64,000 nt of DNA from Vampirovibrionales bacterium (GCA_029866025.1 JARXAD010000002.1:49688-113687), one strand, 5' to 3'. Counted from the stretch's first letter, positions 1 to 47,923 are shown. Notes: generated from the sequence alone by a model not told the origin. Numbers and translations: made by a program.

Positions 1-279
1 TTTATATCGTTCACCTTCTTTAGTGGATTCTAATAACCCCTTAAACTCCTCACTAGAAACCCATTTTCGTAATGCTGTTTCTATACCATCCCATAAGTAC
101 TCTGGGAAAAGCTGTGTAGTTATTTTTATAGAGGTTTCAATATTATCATCTCTAAAATAATCGCAAGCCGTTTTAGCAGTAAGATCAAACCCCCTTTTTA
201 CAGCCCAAGTCTTTATCTGCCCTCCTAAAAAGATTACGCTACTTGTAATGTCGACCATATCTGTCCCTGTATCGTTCAT
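1..279 (-). CDS. Hypothetical protein, 3'-truncated by the window start (N-terminus MNDTGTDMVDITSS...). It lies in the low-GC island downstream of the OLD-family gene.
   Basis: Reverse-complement of 1..279 is an open frame from ATG (279..277) to position 1 (93 codons, no stop). It was not in the ORF track because it is incomplete. GC is about 35%, like the neighbouring OLD gene. No recognisable motif (not UvrD-like). Confidence 0.4.
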   Translation of the reverse strand, partial: MNDTGTDMVDITSSVIFLGGQIKTWAVKRGFDLTAKTACDYFRDDNIETSIKITTQLFPEYLWDGIETALRKWVSSEEFKGLLESTKEGERYK

Positions 280-671
280 ATACTTAAATGGAAATCCTGA
301 AGAGTCTTGGTCGATAGAGGGTACTTATTGACTATAGGAATAATGCATAATCTATGAATAGTCTGAAAGTAGCATCAAATTTTTGAATAAAACGAGGGAT
401 CTGAGACGGAAGGGTTCGTCTCATTCTAGAGCTATTCAAGCACAGTTATACAGATGAATCATACCATAACCCTCTTGGGGGCTACTTTAAAGGGCACGAA
501 ATTGGTTGCACTAGGTTGTAAAACCATAGAGGGCAATTATGCGAAGGTCACCGATATGGCCTTTTAACAATGATCCTAATCGGTATTAATTCTTAGTGAA
601 CGCATAGGTGCACAGAAATGCCTTTAGATGGTTTATCGCTAGCTAGCAGAAGGATTCTCCTATTGAGAGCG

Positions 672-2408
672 TTAAGTATATGTGTTCGCTGTTTTAATGA
701 ATTCAACTAATTTTAGAATCTCAGCTTTAAATCTATATTTAAAGCTATCTAAAGATGGATTTTGACCAACAACGTGCATAGCAATTTTGACCTTGTCCGC
801 TGATATCTCTTTGTCAGAACGGCTAATAAGGCTAAGAGGATTCTCATAGCGTGTTATTTCTGGCAACCTTGCTGTGGGATGAACTGCTTGTATAGCACTA
901 ATTAGTGTCGCGTCAGGTAAATAATTCTCAATTTCTTTGCCCGCTGTAACCCAACAATGGCCATTGCTACTTTCTGTAAACTCATTACGAACCCGTTCCT
1001 TTGTTTGATTTATTTTCCCACCTGCTCTTTTCTTATCGCTATCAATGATGATTACCATATTTTGATTAATTTTTTTAAGCTGGATAAACTCGTCAATTTC
1101 GTGGTCACTTGCACTTAAATGACTAAGAAGTCGTCCCCCGTAAAACATAATCGAGTAATGTAGCCCTTCTTGAAAGTCAGGTGCTATTTGAGATATTGAA
1201 TAGTTTATATAAGCTCGATCTGAGGGCCCTTCGACCCAAATAATGGCATTTGATTGAAATAGGTCAGATGCAGAGACTCCAAGCTCTTTACATATCATAA
1301 GACGCCCCAAGTCATTCGGAGCATAAGAAACCTTTGTACTTTTCCCATGAAGATAAACATGAAATATAGAGACGTTTTTTTGACTAATGATATGTGACGA
1401 GTGCGTCGTTATAAAATATTGGTTTTTAGTTTTTTCATTTAAGTACGTAATAAATTTTTTTTGAAGTTCAGGGTGAAGATGGAGCTCAGGTTCTTCAATA
1501 CAAATAATTGAATCGCTTTTAACAGTGCAGGCTGCTGCCAAAATTAAGACTTGCGAAATACCTGTTCCTAAATCTGTAAGATTCATTTTTTTCTCATGCA
1601 AAGTAACGTTAATTTTGTCTCTTGTGTGTGGAATTTCAATTTTTGCTGAAGGATCCCCGGTTAAAGCTCTTAAAAAACCTAAGATGTTATCAAATCTTTG
1701 AGAAAATTCTGTTTCATGAGTATCTGGATTCTGTAATTTAGCTAGCTCGTAAATTAAACCTTTTCCGCTTAGCTCCTTTAAAAAATTTACAGGCTCGGAA
1801 TCAATCTCCCTATGTGTAGGAATAAACATTGCTTGAGGAAAGGCCTCGTTTACCTTCTGTAAGTAGGTTCTTAGTATGGACTGCACCTGAAGAGGAGGGC
1901 TAGAGTTATCTTGGCCACTAATATTATGCGCTAATGCACGTATATCTTGATTAAGTAACTCATGAACTCTAGCCCATGTTGTTTCCCCAGAACGACCATT
2001 TTTAGAGAAATCAATCCAAAAAAAGTCTTTTTCTTCAGAAATTTCAGCCATGGAATTTAAAAACGCACTATTTGTATCAGTAATACCTATTACTGGCTGA
2101 AATTTCCCCCTTAATAAATTGTTTAAATAACCGTTAAATAGAACCCCTAATGAAAAGGTTACTTGGCTGCTTGAGTCGTAAATGTGCTGCTCCACTCCCC
2201 TTCCCATTTCATTGCTATCGCATAAAAAACTTAGATCGTTTTTTAATTGTGCGTATATATATTTGAGTATATTTGACTTTCCTGAATTGTTTTTTCCTGC
2301 AAATATGTTTATTTTTGAAAAAGGTCCGATCCTTTGTAGTTCTCCAAAGCTGCGGTAATTCCATATACCTAAGCCCTCTATAAAGAGTGGAACACTATTT
2401 TCAGTCAT
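672..2408 (-). CDS. OLD-family ATP-dependent endonuclease: N-terminal ABC-type ATPase plus C-terminal Toprim domain (GajA/OLD class-like).
   Basis: 578-aa ORF. Walker A is GKNNSGKSNIL near the N-terminus. The C-terminal Toprim signatures are IIWVEGPSDRAY (conserved E) and IIIDSDKKRAGG (DxD). GC is about 33% versus about 52% for flanking genes. Confidence 0.7.
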   Translation of the reverse strand: MTENSVPLFIEGLGIWNYRSFGELQRIGPFSKINIFAGKNNSGKSNILKYIYAQLKNDLSFLCDSNEMGRGVEQHIYDSSSQVTFSLGVLFNGYLNNLLRGKFQPVIGITDTNSAFLNSMAEISEEKDFFWIDFSKNGRSGETTWARVHELLNQDIRALAHNISGQDNSSPPLQVQSILRTYLQKVNEAFPQAMFIPTHREIDSEPVNFLKELSGKGLIYELAKLQNPDTHETEFSQRFDNILGFLRALTGDPSAKIEIPHTRDKINVTLHEKKMNLTDLGTGISQVLILAAACTVKSDSIICIEEPELHLHPELQKKFITYLNEKTKNQYFITTHSSHIISQKNVSIFHVYLHGKSTKVSYAPNDLGRLMICKELGVSASDLFQSNAIIWVEGPSDRAYINYSISQIAPDFQEGLHYSIMFYGGRLLSHLSASDHEIDEFIQLKKINQNMVIIIDSDKKRAGGKINQTKERVRNEFTESSNGHCWVTAGKEIENYLPDATLISAIQAVHPTARLPEITRYENPLSLISRSDKEISADKVKIAMHVVGQNPSLDSFKYRFKAEILKLVEFIKTANTYT

Positions 2409-5561: not shown

Positions 5562-5601
5562 CCCCTATAATTTGTTTATACAAGTAAATGAATTATAGGG
5601 G
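5562..5601 (+). promoter_or_regulatory. Perfect 11-bp stem-loop (CCCCTATAATT ... AATTATAGGGG, 18-nt loop) whose 3' arm contains the GGGG Shine-Dalgarno of the downstream ORF.
   Basis: The inverted repeat is read directly. GGGG lies 5 nt upstream of ATG 5607. No U-run follows, so it is not a canonical terminator for gyrB. Confidence 0.45.
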
Positions 5602-5606
5602 TGCTT

Positions 5607-6464
5607 ATGCCAATACGTCCAAAAATTATTATTGCAGATTGCTTTCAAATTAAAACAAAGGACTTAGACGGAGACGGTAAGTTCGATGTAAGCCATGGCG
5701 GCATGGTAAAAATTGCCTTTATGAAACAGCTTAAAGAAAATGGTATTGAGCCAGACCAAGTTGATATTGTTGAAATTGAAATGGACACTGATGGGGATGG
5801 CTACGCCACCTTAGAAGAGTCTGTTGCTCAACATCAAAAAATACTGGACCAGGTTAAAAAAGGAGGTGTATTTTGCGTTTCTTCCTCTATGGGCTTTGTT
5901 ACCAATAAGAAAAAGATGAAGGCCATTTCTGATTCTAAAGAAGCTCGCTATTTAATGCAGGAAGAGAATTGCTATATCGGCGAAATAGCAAGATTGTGCC
6001 CGTATTTTCAGGCTCTAGATAACGACAATCGGAAAACATGGGAAAAGCAGGTAAAAGACGTGTATACCGTTGGAAACCCAATTACAGGGGAAAAAAATCC
6101 CCGTTTACTAATGGATAACTCCTTAACCTTAACCACCACTATTGATGGTTTGGACTTTGACTACAATGGAACCACGGATGTTGTTATACCAGGGTTTTCC
6201 CCCAAAAAAACTGGAGAAAAAAACGAGCTGACTGGAAATTCTTTTGCCACACCGTTTGCTGCAGGAGATGCCGTGGCTCGCTATATACAATCTGATGGCA
6301 AAGCCAGTCCTTGGATTTGCGCAGACCCGATGGCTTCAGATTATTCTCCATGGAATATGCCCAACCGCCCGTCTTATCAGGCACAAAAGAATGCCAAGGA
6401 CACTGGAGTCCCCTTAAAAAAAGAGAAAAAGGCAGAAGAAAAGCAACGAAGAACCAGCGGATAG
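5607..6464 (+). CDS. Divergent subtilisin-like (S8) serine peptidase-like protein without signal peptide, AT-rich.
   Basis: Asp-like IIIADCF, His-like VSHGGMVKIA and Ser motif GNSFATPFAAGDAVARYI (compare subtilisin GTSMATPHVAGAAAL), in D-H-S order. The ORF track starts at GTG 5601; ATG 5607 has the better RBS. GC is about 42%. Confidence 0.4.
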   Translation: MPIRPKIIIADCFQIKTKDLDGDGKFDVSHGGMVKIAFMKQLKENGIEPDQVDIVEIEMDTDGDGYATLEESVAQHQKILDQVKKGGVFCVSSSMGFVTNKKKMKAISDSKEARYLMQEENCYIGEIARLCPYFQALDNDNRKTWEKQVKDVYTVGNPITGEKNPRLLMDNSLTLTTTIDGLDFDYNGTTDVVIPGFSPKKTGEKNELTGNSFATPFAAGDAVARYIQSDGKASPWICADPMASDYSPWNMPNRPSYQAQKNAKDTGVPLKKEKKAEEKQRRTSG

Positions 6465-10065: not shown

Positions 10066-11037
10066 ATGTGTTTCCCTACATTTAGGATCCGTATTATGCG
10101 TATTTCTCATATGGCTACAGCTTTTTCGCCCAACTTTGGACAGCGACCAAAAACGGCCTCAAATATAGTCAATTCTACAGATCAACTATCCATTCGTTTT
10201 GGCTCTATACCTTTATCCACCTATATTAATCAGGTGCATGTTTCCATTGTAGAGGGTGATATTTCGCAGCAAAAAGTAGACGCTTGTGTGGTTCCTCAGC
10301 TACTCACCGGATTAAGGGGGGGGGGAGTCTCAGACGCGCTTTACTCTTCGGGAGCAAGAAATGGGGTAAAAGCGTATCAAAATAAAATTGAGACAGGCCA
10401 TACGATGCAATTGGGTGAAGCACTTTGTTGTGAGTCAGGTGGAGGTAATTCAAAGTACTTGATTCATATTGCCACAGGGAAAGATTATTCGGGCTCTGTC
10501 GAAGATGCTGCTTTAGCGAAGCTAAAAGCCCCTACTATTTATAAAAATCCTAATCAAACAGTGGAAAAATATGCTGATATTGCGTTTATTGCCGTTAAGG
10601 AAGGCGTGAAAAACGCACTTGTTCAGGCAGAACGTAAGGGTTTAAGCTCTGTGGCCATTCCCCATATGGCTATCTTCAATTCATTGTTAGAAGTTCAGGC
10701 AGCCGAAGCCACGTTAGGAGGCATTGAAGAATACTCCAAAACAAGTAAAAACCCAGTAACAGTGAAAATTATTGCCTATCAAGATAAAGATAACGCTACC
10801 AAAAATGCTTACCGTGATGTAATACAGACTAAATCGTATGAGAATCCCTTTTGCCCCGTGGGCCTTACCGTTGGAAATTCCTTTGCGACAATGGAGCATA
10901 GGGTTAGAGGCGATAAATTTTTACCACCCATCGCTAAAGCCTTTAAAAAATATTATGCTACAAACGAGGGCTCTACCGATCGCAAATTAAAGGAGCTTAC
11001 CTATCAAACCTTATCTCTGGAAAAGAAAATTGGCTAA
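10066..11037 (+). CDS. Macro (ADP-ribose-binding / deacetylase) domain protein with an extra C-terminal region.
   Basis: VDACVVPQ and GGGVSDALY..G reflect macrodomain-like glycine-rich loops. GC is about 42%. A G10 homopolymer sits inside the coding region. The C-terminus contains GNSFAT, shared with two other ORFs. Confidence 0.5.
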   Translation: MCFPTFRIRIMRISHMATAFSPNFGQRPKTASNIVNSTDQLSIRFGSIPLSTYINQVHVSIVEGDISQQKVDACVVPQLLTGLRGGGVSDALYSSGARNGVKAYQNKIETGHTMQLGEALCCESGGGNSKYLIHIATGKDYSGSVEDAALAKLKAPTIYKNPNQTVEKYADIAFIAVKEGVKNALVQAERKGLSSVAIPHMAIFNSLLEVQAAEATLGGIEEYSKTSKNPVTVKIIAYQDKDNATKNAYRDVIQTKSYENPFCPVGLTVGNSFATMEHRVRGDKFLPPIAKAFKKYYATNEGSTDRKLKELTYQTLSLEKKIG

Positions 11038-12842
11038 ATCATCGGTTTAATGCCCATATAATCCATACTATCAGTAACAATTTGTTTAAAAATAGGCCCC
11101 GCCACCGTACTCCCCCACGATTCTGCCATGCGGGGGGTATCCACCAGCACAAAAATAAGCACTTCCGGCTTCTCTGCAGGGTAAAACCCCACAAAAGACG
11201 TAAACAAATCCGAGCTGTAGCCTTTACCGCTATTACTGGGTTTGCGAGAGGTGCCCGTTTTACCGGCAATGCGAATTCCCGGCACCCGCACCGAGGATAC
11301 TTTGGGGCGATCAATGGCTTTGGCCAAAAGCTGAGTGAGGTCGGTGGCGGTTTTTTCAGTTAGTACACGGCGACGAATGGGTTCTCTGCTGCCCATACTG
11401 GCTACGTGGGGCTGTATCCACACGCCCCCATTGGCAATGGCTGCTACTGCTGCTGCCATTTGAAGGGGCGTGGCGGCCAATCCATAACCGTAACCCAAGC
11501 TAGCCTGGGTGGACTGGGTCCACGTATCATAATGAGGCAACAACCCAGCGGATTCTCCTGGTAAATCAAGCCCCGTAGGCTGGCCAAAGCCAAAGCGCTT
11601 CAACAGTTCGTACTGAAGAGGCTTCGGCGTCATCATAGAAATTTTGGCGCTGGCAATGTTGCTGCTGTGCTCTAGCAGGTAGGTCAGGTCAATCATGCCA
11701 GGATGAGGGCGCTTGTGGTAATCGTAGTTTTGGATGGTCCATTTTTCAATCACCATGCGGCCCGTATCCAGTATTTTGCTATCGGGTTGTATCGCACCAC
11801 TTTCCAAGCCATTGGCCAAGGTTAAAATTTTCATGGTGCTACCCGGCGGGTACACATCACTCACCGCCCAGTTTTTTAGATTTTCATAGCCATAACGGTA
11901 ATAATGTTCTGGCGTATACGTCGGCGTTACGGCAAAGGCTAAAATATCGCCCGATTTTGGCTGTAACATTACCACGGCACCACGCTTGGCTTTGGATTTA
12001 GCGAGCCCTTCGGTTAATGCTTTTTCCGCAATAAACTGCAAGCGGGCATCAATGGTTAGGGTCACGTCATCGGACTTGGGCAAGCTCACTACTTCTGGGG
12101 CACGAAACGCTTCAATGTTAAGCAACTGGCCATGACCATCCAACATGGGCAAGCGGCCCAATAAAGGAGCCTTTTTTAAAGTTTCCCGTTGCGCATACTC
12201 AACCCCACTACTGACCCCCGTATCATCATTCACATACCCCAGAACATGGGCCGCCAACTGACCTTGAGGGTATTGGCGCACTGTTTTTTTAGGAAAATCC
12301 AAGCCACCAATGGGCTTACGCTCACCGTCCACTTCAATTTTTAATGCACGTAGGGCTTGTACCGTTTCTTTTTCCAAGTTACTGGCCAAGCGAATAGTGC
12401 TAAGCGGCTTACTTAAATCTTCTGACAACCGAGCCGCTGGCATGTGGAGAACAGGGGCAATAGCGGTGGCAATTTGCTCTGGAGATGCCTTGCCAAAGTA
12501 CTCTGGGTGGGCAAAGGCATCGTATAAAATTTGGTCTTGCGCCATTACCATGCCATGACGATCGAGAATGGTGCCACGGTGGTATAGGCTTGTGGCATGG
12601 CTTCGAGACTGCTTTGCTTTTTGCTGAAGCTGGCCGCCCGTAATGAGCTGTAAATAAACCAGTCGCCCCATTAAAACCAGCAACACGACGATGGCAACCA
12701 CACCCACTTGCTGAAGGCGACGCGTTAGCACATGGTGGGGCTTGGCAGCCAGCGGTGTTCCTGTAGGTCTAGCAGGAACGGGGCGAGGCCTAGATGCAGC
12801 CGGTGGAAGAGCCATCGTTAATACCCCGTTACAATAGGCCAA
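11034..12842 (-). CDS. Class B penicillin-binding protein (PBP2/FtsI-type peptidoglycan D,D-transpeptidase).
   Basis: N-terminal TM helix and dimerisation domain. The transpeptidase motifs STMK, SSN and KTGT are all present. Confidence 0.85.
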   Translation of the reverse strand: MAYCNGVLTMALPPAASRPRPVPARPTGTPLAAKPHHVLTRRLQQVGVVAIVVLLVLMGRLVYLQLITGGQLQQKAKQSRSHATSLYHRGTILDRHGMVMAQDQILYDAFAHPEYFGKASPEQIATAIAPVLHMPAARLSEDLSKPLSTIRLASNLEKETVQALRALKIEVDGERKPIGGLDFPKKTVRQYPQGQLAAHVLGYVNDDTGVSSGVEYAQRETLKKAPLLGRLPMLDGHGQLLNIEAFRAPEVVSLPKSDDVTLTIDARLQFIAEKALTEGLAKSKAKRGAVVMLQPKSGDILAFAVTPTYTPEHYYRYGYENLKNWAVSDVYPPGSTMKILTLANGLESGAIQPDSKILDTGRMVIEKWTIQNYDYHKRPHPGMIDLTYLLEHSSNIASAKISMMTPKPLQYELLKRFGFGQPTGLDLPGESAGLLPHYDTWTQSTQASLGYGYGLAATPLQMAAAVAAIANGGVWIQPHVASMGSREPIRRRVLTEKTATDLTQLLAKAIDRPKVSSVRVPGIRIAGKTGTSRKPSNSGKGYSSDLFTSFVGFYPAEKPEVLIFVLVDTPRMAESWGSTVAGPIFKQIVTDSMDYMGIKPMI

Positions 12843-13342
12843 CGCCTCTGAGCATCCTGGCCATTGGTATTTCTTAAAGCCGAGCCAATGGCCACAGTCT
12901 GGGGCAAGGGCTGACCCATGGGTGCCATTAAGGTTAGGGTTTCTTTAGGAGCGCTCAACCATTGAGAATCTTGAGCATTTTTCATAATGCCCGTAAAGGA
13001 TTGTAATCGGTTGAGGTGAATGGATCGTGCTGTATTCGACTCTTGAATCGCTTGGGTTTCTTGAATCAATTGTTGCATGGTAAATTTTTGGTGCACTACC
13101 CAACCGTACGTCGCAATGGTTATTAAAAATCCTGCTGTTACCGCACTCAGTAAAAACCGATTCCATTTTTCTAAAAAAGCCTGATGCCCTATCTGCCGAA
13201 CCAATTGCCGAAAAATCTGCTGTAAAAAAAGGCCCAGCCACCAGGCAGAAGTCTTTGGCAAAGGCTTTTTCACCACGGCTGGGTCATTAAAATCAGTGGG
13301 GGTTGCGCTCGTCATGCCCCTATTATAGGTCGGCTTAGGCAT
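12818..13342 (-). CDS. Single-pass membrane protein with coiled-coil, overlapping the PBP gene start (FtsL/MreC-like partner).
   Basis: 174 aa with one TM (FLLSAVTAGFLITIATYGWVV) followed by a Q-rich helix. It overlaps the PBP start by 25 nt, suggesting an operon. Confidence 0.35.
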   Translation of the reverse strand: MPKPTYNRGMTSATPTDFNDPAVVKKPLPKTSAWWLGLFLQQIFRQLVRQIGHQAFLEKWNRFLLSAVTAGFLITIATYGWVVHQKFTMQQLIQETQAIQESNTARSIHLNRLQSFTGIMKNAQDSQWLSAPKETLTLMAPMGQPLPQTVAIGSALRNTNGQDAQRRWPIVTGY

Positions 13343-13934: not shown

Positions 13935-14774
13935 ATGCCACTCGTCATTAATACCAACTCTTCATCCATTAACGCACAGCGTAATTTAGGCGTTAACAGC
14001 ACCATGCTAGCCCGCAGCATTGAGCGCTTATCGTCAGGGTACCGCATTAACCGAGCTGGCGATGATGCCGCCGGTTTGCAGATATCAGAAAACCTTCGTG
14101 CTCAGATTCGAGGCTCTCAGAAAGCCTTGGATAACGTGCAGGACGGGATGAACGTACTTAACATTGCTGATGGTGGACTGCAAGCCATTACCGACAACTT
14201 GCAACGGATGCGTGAACTTGTGGTCCAAGCGGGTAACGATACCAACTCAACCGCGTCTCGTACCGCTATTAAAGCGGAAATTGATCAACTCGTCTTGGAA
14301 ATTACCCGTGTGAGTGACTCCACTCGATTTAACGGGGTGGGCTTGTTAGACGGCACCACTGCTACCATTAACTTGCAGGTGGGTGCCAACGCCGTGGCTG
14401 CCAACGATGTAATTGCTGTGGCTGCCTTTGGTGACATTGACTCAACCGCATTGGGCACCACCGCCGCAGCAGTTTTGGTGGCAACCAACGCCAACGCATT
14501 AACGTCGTTGGGCCTAATTGATACGGCTATTGGAACCGTCAACACCCGTCGATCCACGATTGGTTCTATCTATAACCGATTGGAGAAAGCGGCGACTAAC
14601 CTCTCCATGACGGTAGAAAACACCCAAGCTGCCGAATCTCGTATTCGCAACGTGGATGTGGCTGCAGAAAGTGCCGAGCTCTCTCGTTTCCAAATCTTGC
14701 AGCAATCGGCCACGGCCATGTTGGCACAAGCCAATACCATGCCTCAAATTGCCCTCAAGCTACTGGGAGGTTAA
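13935..14774 (+). CDS. fliC: Flagellin (short, 279 aa).
   Basis: N-terminus MPLVINTNSSSINAQRNLGVN...LSSGYRINRAGDDAAGLQISE. C-terminal D0 helix ELSRFQILQQSATAMLAQANTMPQIALKLLGG. An AAGGAG RBS lies 8 nt upstream. Confidence 0.9.
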   Translation: MPLVINTNSSSINAQRNLGVNSTMLARSIERLSSGYRINRAGDDAAGLQISENLRAQIRGSQKALDNVQDGMNVLNIADGGLQAITDNLQRMRELVVQAGNDTNSTASRTAIKAEIDQLVLEITRVSDSTRFNGVGLLDGTTATINLQVGANAVAANDVIAVAAFGDIDSTALGTTAAAVLVATNANALTSLGLIDTAIGTVNTRRSTIGSIYNRLEKAATNLSMTVENTQAAESRIRNVDVAAESAELSRFQILQQSATAMLAQANTMPQIALKLLGG

Positions 14775-39963: not shown

Positions 39964-40009
39964 GGCTATCTCTCAAAACTAACCGATGCCATCCCAGTGT
40001 AGCGCAAGG

Positions 40010-41086
40010 TTACGCGACATGAGTTTCCTTCAGCCGATGGCCTTTATTTTTGTAGGCTTCATAAGTTGCGGGGTCAGGAAAGGCAAAATCATACAGGTTG
40101 AGACTTTTAAATTCTTTTTGGGCCTGTTTTTGGGTCTGCTTTTTGTTTTTTGTTGTTTGGTCTAAGTGTTTGATGACACGGGCCACATACTGGCCAAAGG
40201 CCTTGGGCGCCGTAAAAGAATTACCCCTTACCTGAAAGCGCTTACCAATGGCTTTTTTGTTCAAGGGTGTGCAGTAATAGTCAATTTTGCCATCAGGGTT
40301 CGGCCCAAAATCCAGTCCTGTTTTTCCATCTTCCTCAATAACGGTGGCCTCTAGGAGGTCATTGGTAAACATATCCACATAGTTATCATGGTTTTGTTGT
40401 TTTTTTTGACAGGTCTCAGCAATACCAATCGCTTTTGGGTGAGTTAGGTAAGTACTGACTGATCCCTCTACATTATTGTTCGCAAAAAAACAGGGCCACC
40501 GTTTAAGCTTCTCTATCTGTTGGGCTACTTTATTAAGCAAATGTTTAGTCTCCCATGTTCTCCAAACCGGATGTTTCAATTCAGTCAATGAGACCATACT
40601 AGCAACACTACAAACCACGCCTACAGCCCCGGTGGAGGATGTGCCATATGCCTTCATGGCGGCTGCTTGGGCTAGCCCGTAACAAACAGAAGTTTTTCTA
40701 TCAATCTCTTCTTGAAAGCTCTCGAAAGGGGTTAGTTGAAGACCAGCAGGGTTAACGCCTTGTTGCCACAAGCCGTAGGCCACACTGGCGGCTACCAACG
40801 TGCCATGGGTAAAAACCCTATATACGGTTTCTTCCTTATCCGTGCAGGTAATATTCCCAAGCTTTTCTGAATTATCCGTCCGAAAGGTGTCCCAAACGGC
40901 TGCTTGCAAAGATATAGGCGATTGAACCCACGGCTTACCTGTATGAGGGCACACGCCATTGACAGGCGCAGGGCGGCCCATAACCTCTTCAGCATTGGGC
41001 ATGGCATGCTCACCGGGTTGCAACGTTGGCCCTGTGCCGGTTTTATATTTAAAACTGGTTGTAAATGGAAAGGCCAAACGCAGCAT
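40010..41086 (-). CDS. Divergent subtilisin-like (S8) protein, paralog of the ORF at 5607..6464, no signal peptide.
   Basis: AAVWDTF (Asp-like), VFTHGTLVAASVAYG (His motif HGT) and RGNSFTAPKAFGQYVARVIKH (Ser motif GxSxxxP..G), in D-H-S order. GC is about 45%. Confidence 0.4.
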   Translation of the reverse strand: MLRLAFPFTTSFKYKTGTGPTLQPGEHAMPNAEEVMGRPAPVNGVCPHTGKPWVQSPISLQAAVWDTFRTDNSEKLGNITCTDKEETVYRVFTHGTLVAASVAYGLWQQGVNPAGLQLTPFESFQEEIDRKTSVCYGLAQAAAMKAYGTSSTGAVGVVCSVASMVSLTELKHPVWRTWETKHLLNKVAQQIEKLKRWPCFFANNNVEGSVSTYLTHPKAIGIAETCQKKQQNHDNYVDMFTNDLLEATVIEEDGKTGLDFGPNPDGKIDYYCTPLNKKAIGKRFQVRGNSFTAPKAFGQYVARVIKHLDQTTKNKKQTQKQAQKEFKSLNLYDFAFPDPATYEAYKNKGHRLKETHVA

Positions 41087-42410: not shown

Positions 42411-43514
42411 TTATTCCACACGGAACATGGGGCGGTTATCCAAGAGTGTTCCCGTAACCGTTCCATCCACAATGTGGCCACTAACACTGGCACCATCCAA
42501 AGTCATCGCTTCAACGGCACCGGCATTCCGCATCATTTGCTGAAGCTGCGTAATGGTTACTTTTTTGGTGGTGGTAATGGCAATTAATTGACCGGCTGTA
42601 TCATAGCCCATAGCCGAGCGTATTTCTGGAGTGTCGCCGTAACCCGTGTAATCAGGATCAGCTGCCTTGCCACTCGCATCTTTATCCAGCAAAATACACC
42701 CGTTTTGGAAGGCCCATCGAGCGCCAGCCGTTAATGTCTGATTCTTATTCCACTCATCATACGTAATCTGGAAAAAGTTACCGCCGGCATCTTGCCCCAT
42801 AATGCCGTTATATTTGGCAAAGTTTGATCCTTTTTCAGTTGCCGGATCGATAAACTTTGTCATCTGTATGCCTTTCTCAATATAGCCGCCCGTTGTTCCT
42901 TGTTTAACAACATCACCCGCCTCATTTTTCTTGTAGTGGTGCAACGGTCCATTTATTACAAAGGCATTACTAGGGTCCGAATCAAAAGTCGCCGCTGTAG
43001 CACCAGCAGCATCTTTGGTATCGATCACAATGGATACGCTGGTCGGCGTTTTCTTAAGTACCGTGTAACCGTCGTATTCTTCAACTATTGCACCATTTTT
43101 TGACGTTGTTGTTGACTTAGGAGCAATGGGTTTAATAGGATTCTTGCCCTTTGGGTCCGTCACAGCCGGAGCGGCGGGCGTGGGCACAGTAGCCACCGAT
43201 TTTTTGGTGTGTTTGATAATGGTAATCTCTTCTGTGGGCCTACGATTACGAATAAAGTTGGCTGCCACGGCTACAGCCGCCAAGGTGGCAAACACACCCA
43301 AAATCCCAATACCACCCCTGGGTTCAGGAGCACACACGTTGCTTTGCACCGTGTATTCTGTGGGGCGGGCCAAACGGCGGTTTAAATCGCCAGCGCCAGG
43401 AAAACACCTTTGGGGTACCCAAGTGTTATACTGATTGAAGCCGTACGATGGATCAGAAAATGAATAATTCACAATGATCGTTCCCTTAAGCGCAATAATT
43501 AACGGCCCAAACAC
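42411..43514 (-). CDS. Phosphodiester glycosidase family (NAGPA/DUF2233-like) protein, paralog 2, with N-terminal TM.
   Basis: AMTLDGASVSG motif, TM ILGVFATLAAVAVAANFI and a P/T-rich linker. Confidence 0.5.
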   Translation of the reverse strand: MFGPLIIALKGTIIVNYSFSDPSYGFNQYNTWVPQRCFPGAGDLNRRLARPTEYTVQSNVCAPEPRGGIGILGVFATLAAVAVAANFIRNRRPTEEITIIKHTKKSVATVPTPAAPAVTDPKGKNPIKPIAPKSTTTSKNGAIVEEYDGYTVLKKTPTSVSIVIDTKDAAGATAATFDSDPSNAFVINGPLHHYKKNEAGDVVKQGTTGGYIEKGIQMTKFIDPATEKGSNFAKYNGIMGQDAGGNFFQITYDEWNKNQTLTAGARWAFQNGCILLDKDASGKAADPDYTGYGDTPEIRSAMGYDTAGQLIAITTTKKVTITQLQQMMRNAGAVEAMTLDGASVSGHIVDGTVTGTLLDNRPMFRVE

Positions 43515-47242: not shown

Positions 47243-47923
47243 CTAGTCAACAACTTGCCTTTCAGAGACATAGCCTTCAGGCAAATTGTTTAAATCCAAC
47301 TCGTTTTTTTGGATATACAACAGTTTTTCTGGTCCCCAATAAAGGTTTCCCTTTTCTTTAATTTTAAAATAACTTTCATTTTTGCTTATTCCGTTAAGAG
47401 CAGGGACAAAGAGAAAATCGTTGGTTGAAGGACAGCCTCTCCCATTAAGATCACAAGCATCTTTATGAGCATCTATCATAGAAAACATTTCTTCTAATAA
47501 TGCTCGGTTGGTAGTTAATGTTAATATACCGGAATGATTATTTTTATGTTCTAGAAGAATTTTATAATAGCCACTACTGGAAGCAGCGGCCTTTTCATCA
47601 TCATAAAATCTATGAAGCAAACTTCCTTGAGGCGAAGAGGTATAGATTACATGTGTGTACTTCCCACTCTCAGAGGTATTTTTTACAGAGCTGGCTTGGC
47701 TAACCTTTTGGCACGCATAACCAAAGGTTTTACACAGGCCCTCTAACCATTGGTTCACATTCGGTTCGGTATCATTATTTTGTTGGGCAAATGTATCCGT
47801 GTCAAAGTCAAAGGCCTCATTTGTCGGGCGAAAGCCTAACAGTTGCTGAAAACCACGAAATTCATCCCCCCCCCCCCGATTGGCTGGAGCAATGTGATAC
47901 TGGGTGCCAAATTGAATGTTCAT
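47243..47923 (-). CDS. Hypothetical 226-aa protein, AT-rich, with a G12 tract in codons 16-20.
   Basis: ORF only. The GGDEF-like string is the translation of the homopolymer, not a cyclase motif. Confidence 0.35.
   Translation of the reverse strand: MNIQFGTQYHIAPANRGGGDEFRGFQQLLGFRPTNEAFDFDTDTFAQQNNDTEPNVNQWLEGLCKTFGYACQKVSQASSVKNTSESGKYTHVIYTSSPQGSLLHRFYDDEKAAASSSGYYKILLEHKNNHSGILTLTTNRALLEEMFSMIDAHKDACDLNGRGCPSTNDFLFVPALNGISKNESYFKIKEKGNLYWGPEKLLYIQKNELDLNNLPEGYVSERQVVD

Follow-up and report, generated by a model that had tools for sequence, protein, structure and literature searches.

This study examined two genes, here called ORF1 and ORF2 for their open reading frames (ORFs), in a 64,000-nucleotide stretch of DNA (hereafter the window) from a metagenome-assembled genome (MAG) of a Vampirovibrionales bacterium (GCA_029866025.1 JARXAD010000002.1:49688-113687). 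Both genes probably encode active, divergent subtilase-like peptidases that lack a prodomain and a signal peptide, carry Ca-binding-type loops, and are under weak or diversifying constraint; we further infer that the proteins may plausibly be exported or act on prey. In the best reading of the results, the two proteins belong to a very small, previously undescribed, and extremely divergent branch of the subtilase fold (clan SB, S8-like) that is restricted to a Vampirovibrionales clade.

Two paralogous genes of a small lineage-specific family

ORF1 occupies positions 5607..6464 of the plus strand (285 amino acids; NCBI MDH4378690.1), and ORF2 occupies positions 40010..41086 of the minus strand (358 amino acids; NCBI MDH4378720.1, QE263_02285). 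These are the coordinates at which an original prediction had placed two ORFs sharing divergent subtilisin-like Asp, His, and Ser motifs. The strings that it had quoted were all found, namely IIIADCF, SHGGMV, and GNSFATPFAAGDAVARYI at residues 7-13, 29-34, and 210-227 of ORF1 and AAVWDTF, THGTLVAAS, and GNSFTAPKAFGQYVARVI at residues 62-68, 93-101, and 288-305 of ORF2. A Shine-Dalgarno-like AGGGG is located 5 nt 5' of the ORF1 start codon (ATG); scans for promoters and terminators were uninformative. The comparison of the two proteins by BLASTP yielded an E-value of 2e-8 with 24% identity over 217 columns, and the two are homologous along most of their length, beyond the motifs alone.

In a Kyte-Doolittle scan, all family members lacked transmembrane segments and segments resembling a signal peptide, and a Pfam search identified no match to the inhibitor_I9 prodomain in ORF1 or ORF2. 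A prodomain would not fit into ORF1: the proposed catalytic Asp is already residue 11, and the reading frame is closed by a stop codon just upstream of position 5592. These results agree with the lack of a signal peptide and a prodomain that had been claimed for both proteins.

To collect family members outside the window, we searched 1.84 billion cluster representatives exhaustively with a HMMER profile. Only 8 clusters matched, including the queries ORF1 and ORF2, and the six others had E-values of 1e-30 to 4.5e-5, which supports the earlier view of a lineage-specific family. The sequences comprised three paralog types: the short ORF1 type (ORF1 and P0006), the ORF2 type (ORF2, P0004, and P0007), and the P0005 type (P0005, P0008/P0009, and the more distant P0003). 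P0005 is QE263_08020, a third paralog located on another contig of the same Vampirovibrionales MAG, so that all three types occur in one genome. Further paralogs in the window were ruled out by a six-frame search with the hidden Markov model (HMM) of the family, which yielded ORF1 and ORF2 only. Word-index homolog searches with ORF1 and ORF2 returned nothing but the queries themselves, a further search with the eight-sequence alignment returned three already known members and nothing new, and tblastn against plasmids and phages yielded no match.

Conserved catalytic residues

The alignment of the eight sequences revealed 16 invariant positions, which in ORF2 numbering are D66, F68, H94, G95, E122, P198, F200, G257, D259, G266, D269, G281, N289, S290, P294, and Y342. 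The proposed catalytic triad, D11/H30/S212 in ORF1 and D66/H94/S290 in ORF2, was invariant in every member covering these residues, and both ORFs present the residues in the order Asp, His, (Asn), Ser. In subtilisin BPN', the triad is D32/H64/S221, in which the Asp follows the first core strand and the His and Ser stand at helix N-termini. The structural models of ORF1 and ORF2, in which the triad was placed by DSSP secondary structure only, likewise show the Asp immediately behind the first core strand and two helices whose N-termini carry the His and the Ser, respectively.

In ORF1 (plus strand), IIIADCF (5625..5645) is predicted to form strand beta-1 with the proposed catalytic Asp11 at its end, SHGGMV (5691..5708) contains the proposed catalytic His30 at the N-terminus of helix 30-44, and GNSFATPFAAGDAVARYI (6234..6287), with its invariant N-S-x-x-x-P, contains the proposed nucleophile Ser212 at the N-terminus of helix 211-228. 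The corresponding segments of ORF2 (minus strand) are AAVWDTF (40883..40903), in which strand 60-65 is followed by the proposed catalytic Asp66; THGTLVAAS (40784..40810), with the proposed catalytic His94 at the N-terminus of helix 94-108; and GNSFTAPKAFGQYVARVI (40172..40225), with the proposed nucleophile Ser290 at the N-terminus of helix 289-315. Classical subtilases carry the signatures D-[ST]-G, H-G-T-H, and G-T-S-x-A-x-P. The family motifs D-[CTSF]-F, [ST]-H-G-x, and x-N-S-x-[AT]-x-P are similar to these signatures but do not match them.

The presence of the triad in so small a set of invariant positions favors retained catalysis over a pseudo-enzyme. The alternative of a pseudo-protease, which the original prediction had also entertained, was therefore not borne out. 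With this triad, the proteins would act as serine endopeptidases through the classical charge-relay mechanism.

A candidate oxyanion-hole Asn (N205 in ORF2 and N139 in ORF1) was present in 7 of the 8 members and was replaced with Asp in P0006; in the hhalign alignment, N203 rather than N205 was paired with N155 of subtilisin. In ORF1, Asn139 follows a conserved PxF strand in PYFQALDN (6000..6023, plus strand) and may be equivalent to N155. In ORF2, the conserved PxF strand is followed by Asn203 and Asn205 in PCFFANNN (40472..40495, minus strand).

We also observed an invariant Glu (Glu122 in ORF2) in 7 of the 7 members covering the region, a residue for which the subtilisin analogy offers no role. 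It is located in PFES of ORF2 (40718..40729, minus strand), directly after the strand that succeeds the His helix, and its counterpart in ORF1 is the EIEM site (5772..5783, plus strand).

Ca-binding-type loops and the C-terminal extension

The invariant residues G257, D259, G266, and D269 form a DxDxDG-type, Ca-binding-like loop just ahead of the Ser strand. This family-wide loop (G-x-D...G-x-x-D) is DFDYNGTTD in ORF1 (6153..6179, plus strand), and its counterpart in ORF2, GLDFGPNPDGKIDY (40277..40318, minus strand), is degenerate through a 2-residue insertion. The ORF1 type has two more Ca-binding-type loops. The first, DLDGDGKFD (5661..5687, plus strand), is a DxDxDGxxD loop directly ahead of the catalytic His, is conserved in P0006, and yielded weak EF-hand, FG-GAP, Dockerin, and Excalibur matches. 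The second, DTDGDGYATLEE (5784..5819, plus strand), is a canonical 12-residue EF-hand-type loop, for which P0006 matched EF-hand_1 with an E-value of 0.0014. NCBI names ORF1 an EF-hand domain-containing protein because of this canonical loop.

The DxDxDG strings yielded only sub-threshold EF-hand, Dockerin, FG-GAP, and Excalibur matches, and ORF1 did not reach the EF-hand thresholds (EF-hand_7, 13.7 bits against a cut-off of 30; EF-hand_1, 8.1 against 25.4). ORF1 contains isolated DxDxDG loops within a predicted subtilase-like fold and not an EF-hand pair. As their motifs suggest, the DxDxDG-type loops would bind Ca2+.

ORF2 further contains a conserved C-terminal extension, LNLYDFAFPDPATYEAY (40052..40102, minus strand), which includes LYDFAFP and was modeled with a predicted local distance difference test (pLDDT) score of ~90. 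The LYDFAFP extension is common to the ORF2 and P0005 types and is absent from the ORF1 type.

Predicted fold and relation to Peptidase_S8

Nothing was recognized in ORF1 or ORF2 by Pfam, NCBIfam, PADLOC, or PHROGs. Template-free AlphaFold2 models built from the eight-sequence alignment had a pLDDT of 67.7 and a predicted template modeling (pTM) score of 0.70 for ORF1 and a pLDDT of 77.2 and a pTM of 0.83 for ORF2. When the ORF2 model was used as the Foldseek query, the top 16 matches were all S8/S53 proteins, with probabilities of up to 1.00, E-values from 5.6e-5, and TM-scores of 0.3-0.43; the structural alignments with subtilases had 10-16% identity. The models thus support a subtilase-like alpha/beta fold for both proteins, and the outcome of the structure prediction favored a subtilase over an unrelated fold.

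The closest relative of ORF1, P0006 (38% identity; BLASTP E-value, 3e-43), matched PF00082 (Peptidase_S8) at residues 55-219 with an E-value of 3.8e-4 and 20.3 bits, just below the gathering threshold of 21.8 bits. P0006 thus provides an independent sequence bridge from the family to Peptidase_S8. The profile search against Peptidase_S8 was accordingly split, with a sub-threshold positive result for this relative and a negative result for ORF1 and ORF2 themselves, neither of which matched PF00082 even at E<=10. As a register check only, the family was aligned by hhalign with three subtilisin sequences; the relaxed alignment was colinear (D66~D32, H94~H64, N203~N155, and S290~S221), and the matches were not significant (E-values of 0.021 for the local and 0.18 for the relaxed alignment). 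The divergent subtilisin-like Asp, His, and Ser motifs that had been proposed are upheld by the predicted subtilase-like fold, the Asp-His-Ser order, the invariance of the triad, and the PF00082 match of P0006.

These results also bear on the possibility that the proteins are catalytically dead, or that they have a non-subtilase alpha/beta fold whose motifs resemble those of subtilisin by chance. Such an explanation would be consistent with the lack of a significant sequence match of ORF1 and ORF2 to S8 and with the deviating motifs (D-[CTS]-F for D-[ST]-G and N-S for T-S). It is nevertheless very improbable, because the triad constitutes 3 of only 16 invariant positions, P0006 matches PF00082, and the motifs are colinear with those of subtilisin and located on equivalent secondary-structure elements.

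Genomic slots and GC content

Every copy of the family was a solitary gene amid housekeeping genes. ORF1 is located between gyrB and argS. ORF2 has a divergent, kbl-like class I/II aminotransferase gene on one side and, on the other, coaE, which lies 46 nt downstream on the same strand. P0008/P0009 stands between an Aminotran_4 gene and the gene for DMRL synthase, and P0003 is near gyrA and a TPR gene.

This context argues against two functions that would otherwise be conceivable. The first is the maturation or macrocyclization of ribosomal natural products in the manner of PatA/PatG, LicP, CylA, NisP, and EpiP, with the substrate genes located elsewhere. PatA/PatG, which come from the cyanobacterial phylum, are cytoplasmic, and lack a classical prodomain, provide a precedent. 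However, precursor-peptide, modification, and transporter genes were not found beside any of the six loci examined, and three hyper-divergent paralogs would be left unexplained; we thus regard peptide maturation as very improbable. The second is a role as anti-phage or conflict-system proteases that diversify in an arms race with mobile elements, for which the fast evolution, the low GC content, and a low-GC OLD/GajA-like ATPase gene (672..2408) 3.2 kb from ORF1 could be cited. Nevertheless, gyrB stands between ORF1 and the ATPase gene, the copies are solitary in stable housekeeping slots and have no sensor or partner gene, and the proteins yielded no PADLOC match at E<=1, no PHROGs match, and nothing on plasmids or phages. 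A defense function is, in our judgment, very improbable.

The GC content was 0.417 for ORF1 and 0.461 for ORF2, compared with 0.498 for the window and 0.50-0.56 for the neighboring genes, consistent with the low-GC patches noted earlier. In 5 of the 6 outside loci, the family genes were 5-12 GC points under their flanks, which indicates that the low GC content is a family trait and not a mark of recent transfer. Recent horizontal acquisition as its cause was rejected in view of the syntenic slots across genomes and the family-wide low GC content.

Divergence of the ORF2-type gene within a conserved slot

An ORF2-type gene was found in an identical slot between kbl and coaE on two metagenomic contigs, L001 (GCA_020049755.1) and L002 (JGI 3300043504), whose flanks were 81-86% identical to the window DNA. 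The similarity ended 18 nt into ORF2, with the first six codons (MLRLAF) shared, and restarted at the coaE start codon. Between these points lies a hypervariable stretch (39964..41068, minus strand) that has no nucleotide similarity in the two related genomes. The ORF2 orthologs in L001 and L002 were 33-35% identical in amino acid sequence to ORF2, compared with 89-92% for CoaE; among all three genomes, the identity was 33-46% for the protease-like protein and 89-93% for CoaE. This contrast between adjacent genes cleanly marks out a gene under unusual evolutionary pressure.

We estimated nonsynonymous (dN) and synonymous (dS) divergence by the Nei-Gojobori method. The dN was 0.05-0.07 for coaE and 0.52-0.79 for the ORF2-type gene, and the dS was 0.84-1.1 for coaE and 1.4 to saturated for the ORF2-type gene. 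With the flank dS used as the clock, the mean omega was ~0.5-0.9 for the ORF2-type gene and ~0.06 for coaE. Relative to coaE, the ORF2-type gene was thus accelerated ten-fold or more at nonsynonymous sites, although such an acceleration does not prove positive selection.

That dS appeared higher within the ORF2-type gene than in coaE could be due to an exchange of older alleles over conserved flanks, to weaker selection on codons, or to errors in the alignment. Saturation and alignment error blur the dS comparison between in-place acceleration and old-allele exchange at 39964..41068. A mechanism of the diversity-generating retroelement (DGR) type was rejected on inspection only; no reverse-transcriptase domain was identified among the ORFs scanned against Pfam. 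Scans of genome and metagenome contigs with the family alignment and CoaE for more variable-slot copies, in a collection without the sample of L002, yielded nothing useful.

In the L002 copy (L002:1-939), only the C-terminal two thirds are open (253..939), and the Asp/His region is missing. The copy is preceded by 252 nt of stop-rich sequence with 21% GC, which could represent gene decay or an AT-rich insertion. The missing Asp/His half and the stop-rich upstream sequence indicate that loss of the family gene does occur.

These findings could be explained if the proteins were intracellular, self-compartmentalized or regulatory subtilases acting on cytoplasmic substrates, similar to the intracellular subtilisin proteases of Bacillus, and if the fast evolution reflected low constraint on a dispensable gene. 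The lack of a signal peptide, transmembrane segment, or prodomain, the mean omega below 1, the truncated ortholog in L002, and the low GC at third codon positions, which suggests weak codon selection, are all consistent with this explanation. However, three types have been kept in fixed slots over several genomes with an invariant triad, which speaks against simple decay, multiple Ca-loop motifs would be unusual at cytosolic Ca2+ levels, and intracellular housekeeping proteases do not normally reach 35% identity where their neighbors have ~90%. We therefore consider intracellular subtilases of this kind unlikely.

Proposed function

The reading that we prefer, active subtilase-like peptidases with a plausible exported or prey-directed role, would account for the data as follows. 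The low Ca2+ concentration of the cytosol may hold the enzyme unfolded or inactive until a Ca-rich compartment is reached, and control by Ca2+ would substitute for the safety function of the missing prodomain. The sequence outside the catalytic core would have diverged under weak or diversifying constraint. Divergence of this kind is typical of proteins exposed to an external partner that keeps changing, for instance the substrates or inhibitors of a prey or host, and would fit an exported or translocated effector-type protease.

Vampirovibrio chlorellavorus, the only cultured relative, is an algal predator, and its genome paper predicts that a type IV secretion system passes hydrolytic effector enzymes to the prey (PMC4451040). 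An effector role of the family is plausible because of this predicted delivery of hydrolytic effectors in the cultured predator. A cytoplasmic location, as first assumed, would agree with the lack of a Sec signal, yet the EF-hand/DxDxDG loops and the fast evolution suit an exported or translocated enzyme at least equally.

Several observations weigh against the preferred reading. ORF1 and ORF2 do not match PF00082, sequence searches of the PDB with two- and eight-sequence profiles returned no subtilase even at E<=10, and the hhalign comparison with the three subtilisins was not significant. The Foldseek TM-scores are low, and the fold assignment comes from AlphaFold models built on eight sequences only. 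The candidate oxyanion Asn is replaced in P0006, and Ca binding is deduced from motifs only. A mean omega of ~0.5-0.9 can arise from relaxed constraint alone, and the truncated L002 ortholog fits dispensability. Finally, the proteins have no secretion signal, and no secretion, inhibitor, or substrate gene is located near the loci.

A bolder version of the preferred reading is that the family forms a dedicated set of subtilase effectors that are gated by Ca2+, do without a prodomain, and diversify rapidly in a predatory, non-photosynthetic cyanobacterial lineage. The genes would remain in fixed slots while their coding sequence is turned over by diversifying selection or by the exchange of old alleles, and the proteins would be delivered independently of Sec and switched on only in a Ca-rich prey or extracellular environment. 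The exchange of old alleles is hinted at by the synonymous divergence, which appears to be higher in the gene than in its flanks. We offer this version tentatively and consider it doubtful.

The analysis adds that the family is extremely rare, that it comprises three conserved paralog types, and that its conserved slots hold a hyper-divergent gene with sharp boundaries. With it, the subtilase fold gains a branch that curated profile libraries miss, and because this branch has neither a signal peptide nor a folding prodomain, it bears on the folding and restraint of minimal subtilases. We know of no experimentally identified predation factor in Vampirovibrionales, and three paralogs per genome provide concrete candidates for prey-interaction factors. 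If the proteins are merely weakly constrained intracellular proteases, the family would be of modest interest.

Macro-domain gene and other genes in the window

The original prediction had also linked a macro-domain ORF (10066..11037, plus strand; PF01661, 29.4 bits; GC content, 0.415) to the family through the string GNSFAT. The string was present at 10873..10890, but the proposed family link did not hold. Nothing beyond GNSFAT was similar: BLASTP yielded an E-value of 0.67, and the family HMM with filters off (--max) gave no match at E<=10. In shuffling trials, ORF1 shared some 6-mer with the other 49 window proteins in 13% of the trials and exactly GNSFAT in 0.15%. Homology was rejected, since the hexamer is isolated and has no supporting homology; its occurrence in the macro-domain ORF is most likely an a posteriori coincidence. 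Approximately 80 N-terminal and 90 C-terminal residues of this ORF have no family match.

Several other genes of the window were recorded. The ORF at 672..2408 (minus strand) encodes a 578-amino-acid OLD-family/GajA-like ATPase (Pfam AAA_15, 84.6 bits, and AAA_21; PADLOC GajA, 1.6e-25, with AriA and NsnB also matched); with 0.358, it has the lowest GC content of the window, and it resembles a solitary defense-type gene adjoining gyrB. Two ORFs, at 47243..47923 (minus strand; GC content, 0.394) and 12818..13342 (minus strand), had no Pfam match and may be additional lineage-specific, fast-evolving genes dispersed among housekeeping genes. A flagellin gene (Flagellin_N and Flagellin_C) at 13935..14774 (plus strand) fits a motility similar to that of Vampirovibrio, and a gene for an NAGPA-type phosphodiester glycosidase is located at 42411..43514 (minus strand).

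Comparison with known subtilases

The family resembles the subtilases (clan SB, S8, PF00082), including subtilisin BPN'/E, proteinase K, and thermitase, in its predicted three-layer alpha/beta fold, the order Asp-His-(Asn)-Ser, the position of the Asp at the end of beta-1 and of the His and Ser at helix N-termini, and the x-S-x-A-x-P Ser motif. In contrast to these enzymes, the family is undetected by PF00082 except for P0006, which falls just short of the threshold, and it has D-x-F in place of D-[ST]-G and N-S in place of T-S. It also has a DxDxDG loop inserted ahead of the Ser strand and, in 2 of its 3 types, the LYDFAFP extension. The secreted subtilisins differ further in their signal peptide and I9 prodomain, neither of which is found in the family; the Asp of ORF1 is already at residue 11. 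The family thus fails the PF00082 threshold and the classical signatures, and its predicted fold and conserved residues support a subtilase-like assignment.

In organization, the closest counterparts are the subtilases without a prodomain, namely the Bacillus intracellular subtilisin proteases (ISPs; PDB 7xr8 and 7y6m) and the cyanobactin proteases PatA/PatG (3zxx and 4aks), which similarly have no Sec signal, no classical prodomain, and a compact catalytic domain. Unlike ORF1 and ORF2, however, both groups are recognizable as S8 by sequence. PatA/PatG are encoded in biosynthetic clusters, whereas the family has housekeeping neighbors only. The ISPs have an N-terminal inhibitory extension and are encoded by conserved, housekeeping-type genes, whereas the family evolves approximately 10 times faster than its housekeeping neighbors.

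The lanthipeptide leader peptidases (LicP, 4zoq; CylA, 9ekq; NisP, 4mzd; EpiP, 3t41) and the mycosins of type VII secretion (MycP3, 4kg7; MycP5, 7np7) are secreted or membrane-anchored and are encoded in their cognate clusters, a context that the family does not have; lanthipeptide leader peptidases and mycosins scored only marginally above generic subtilases. SubA of the AB5 subtilase cytotoxin (2iy9) exemplifies a subtilase fold directed against a host target, the kind of role that we infer for the family. Unlike the family, in which no delivery partner is visible, SubA is paired with a B subunit; it also carries a signal peptide and can be recognized as S8.

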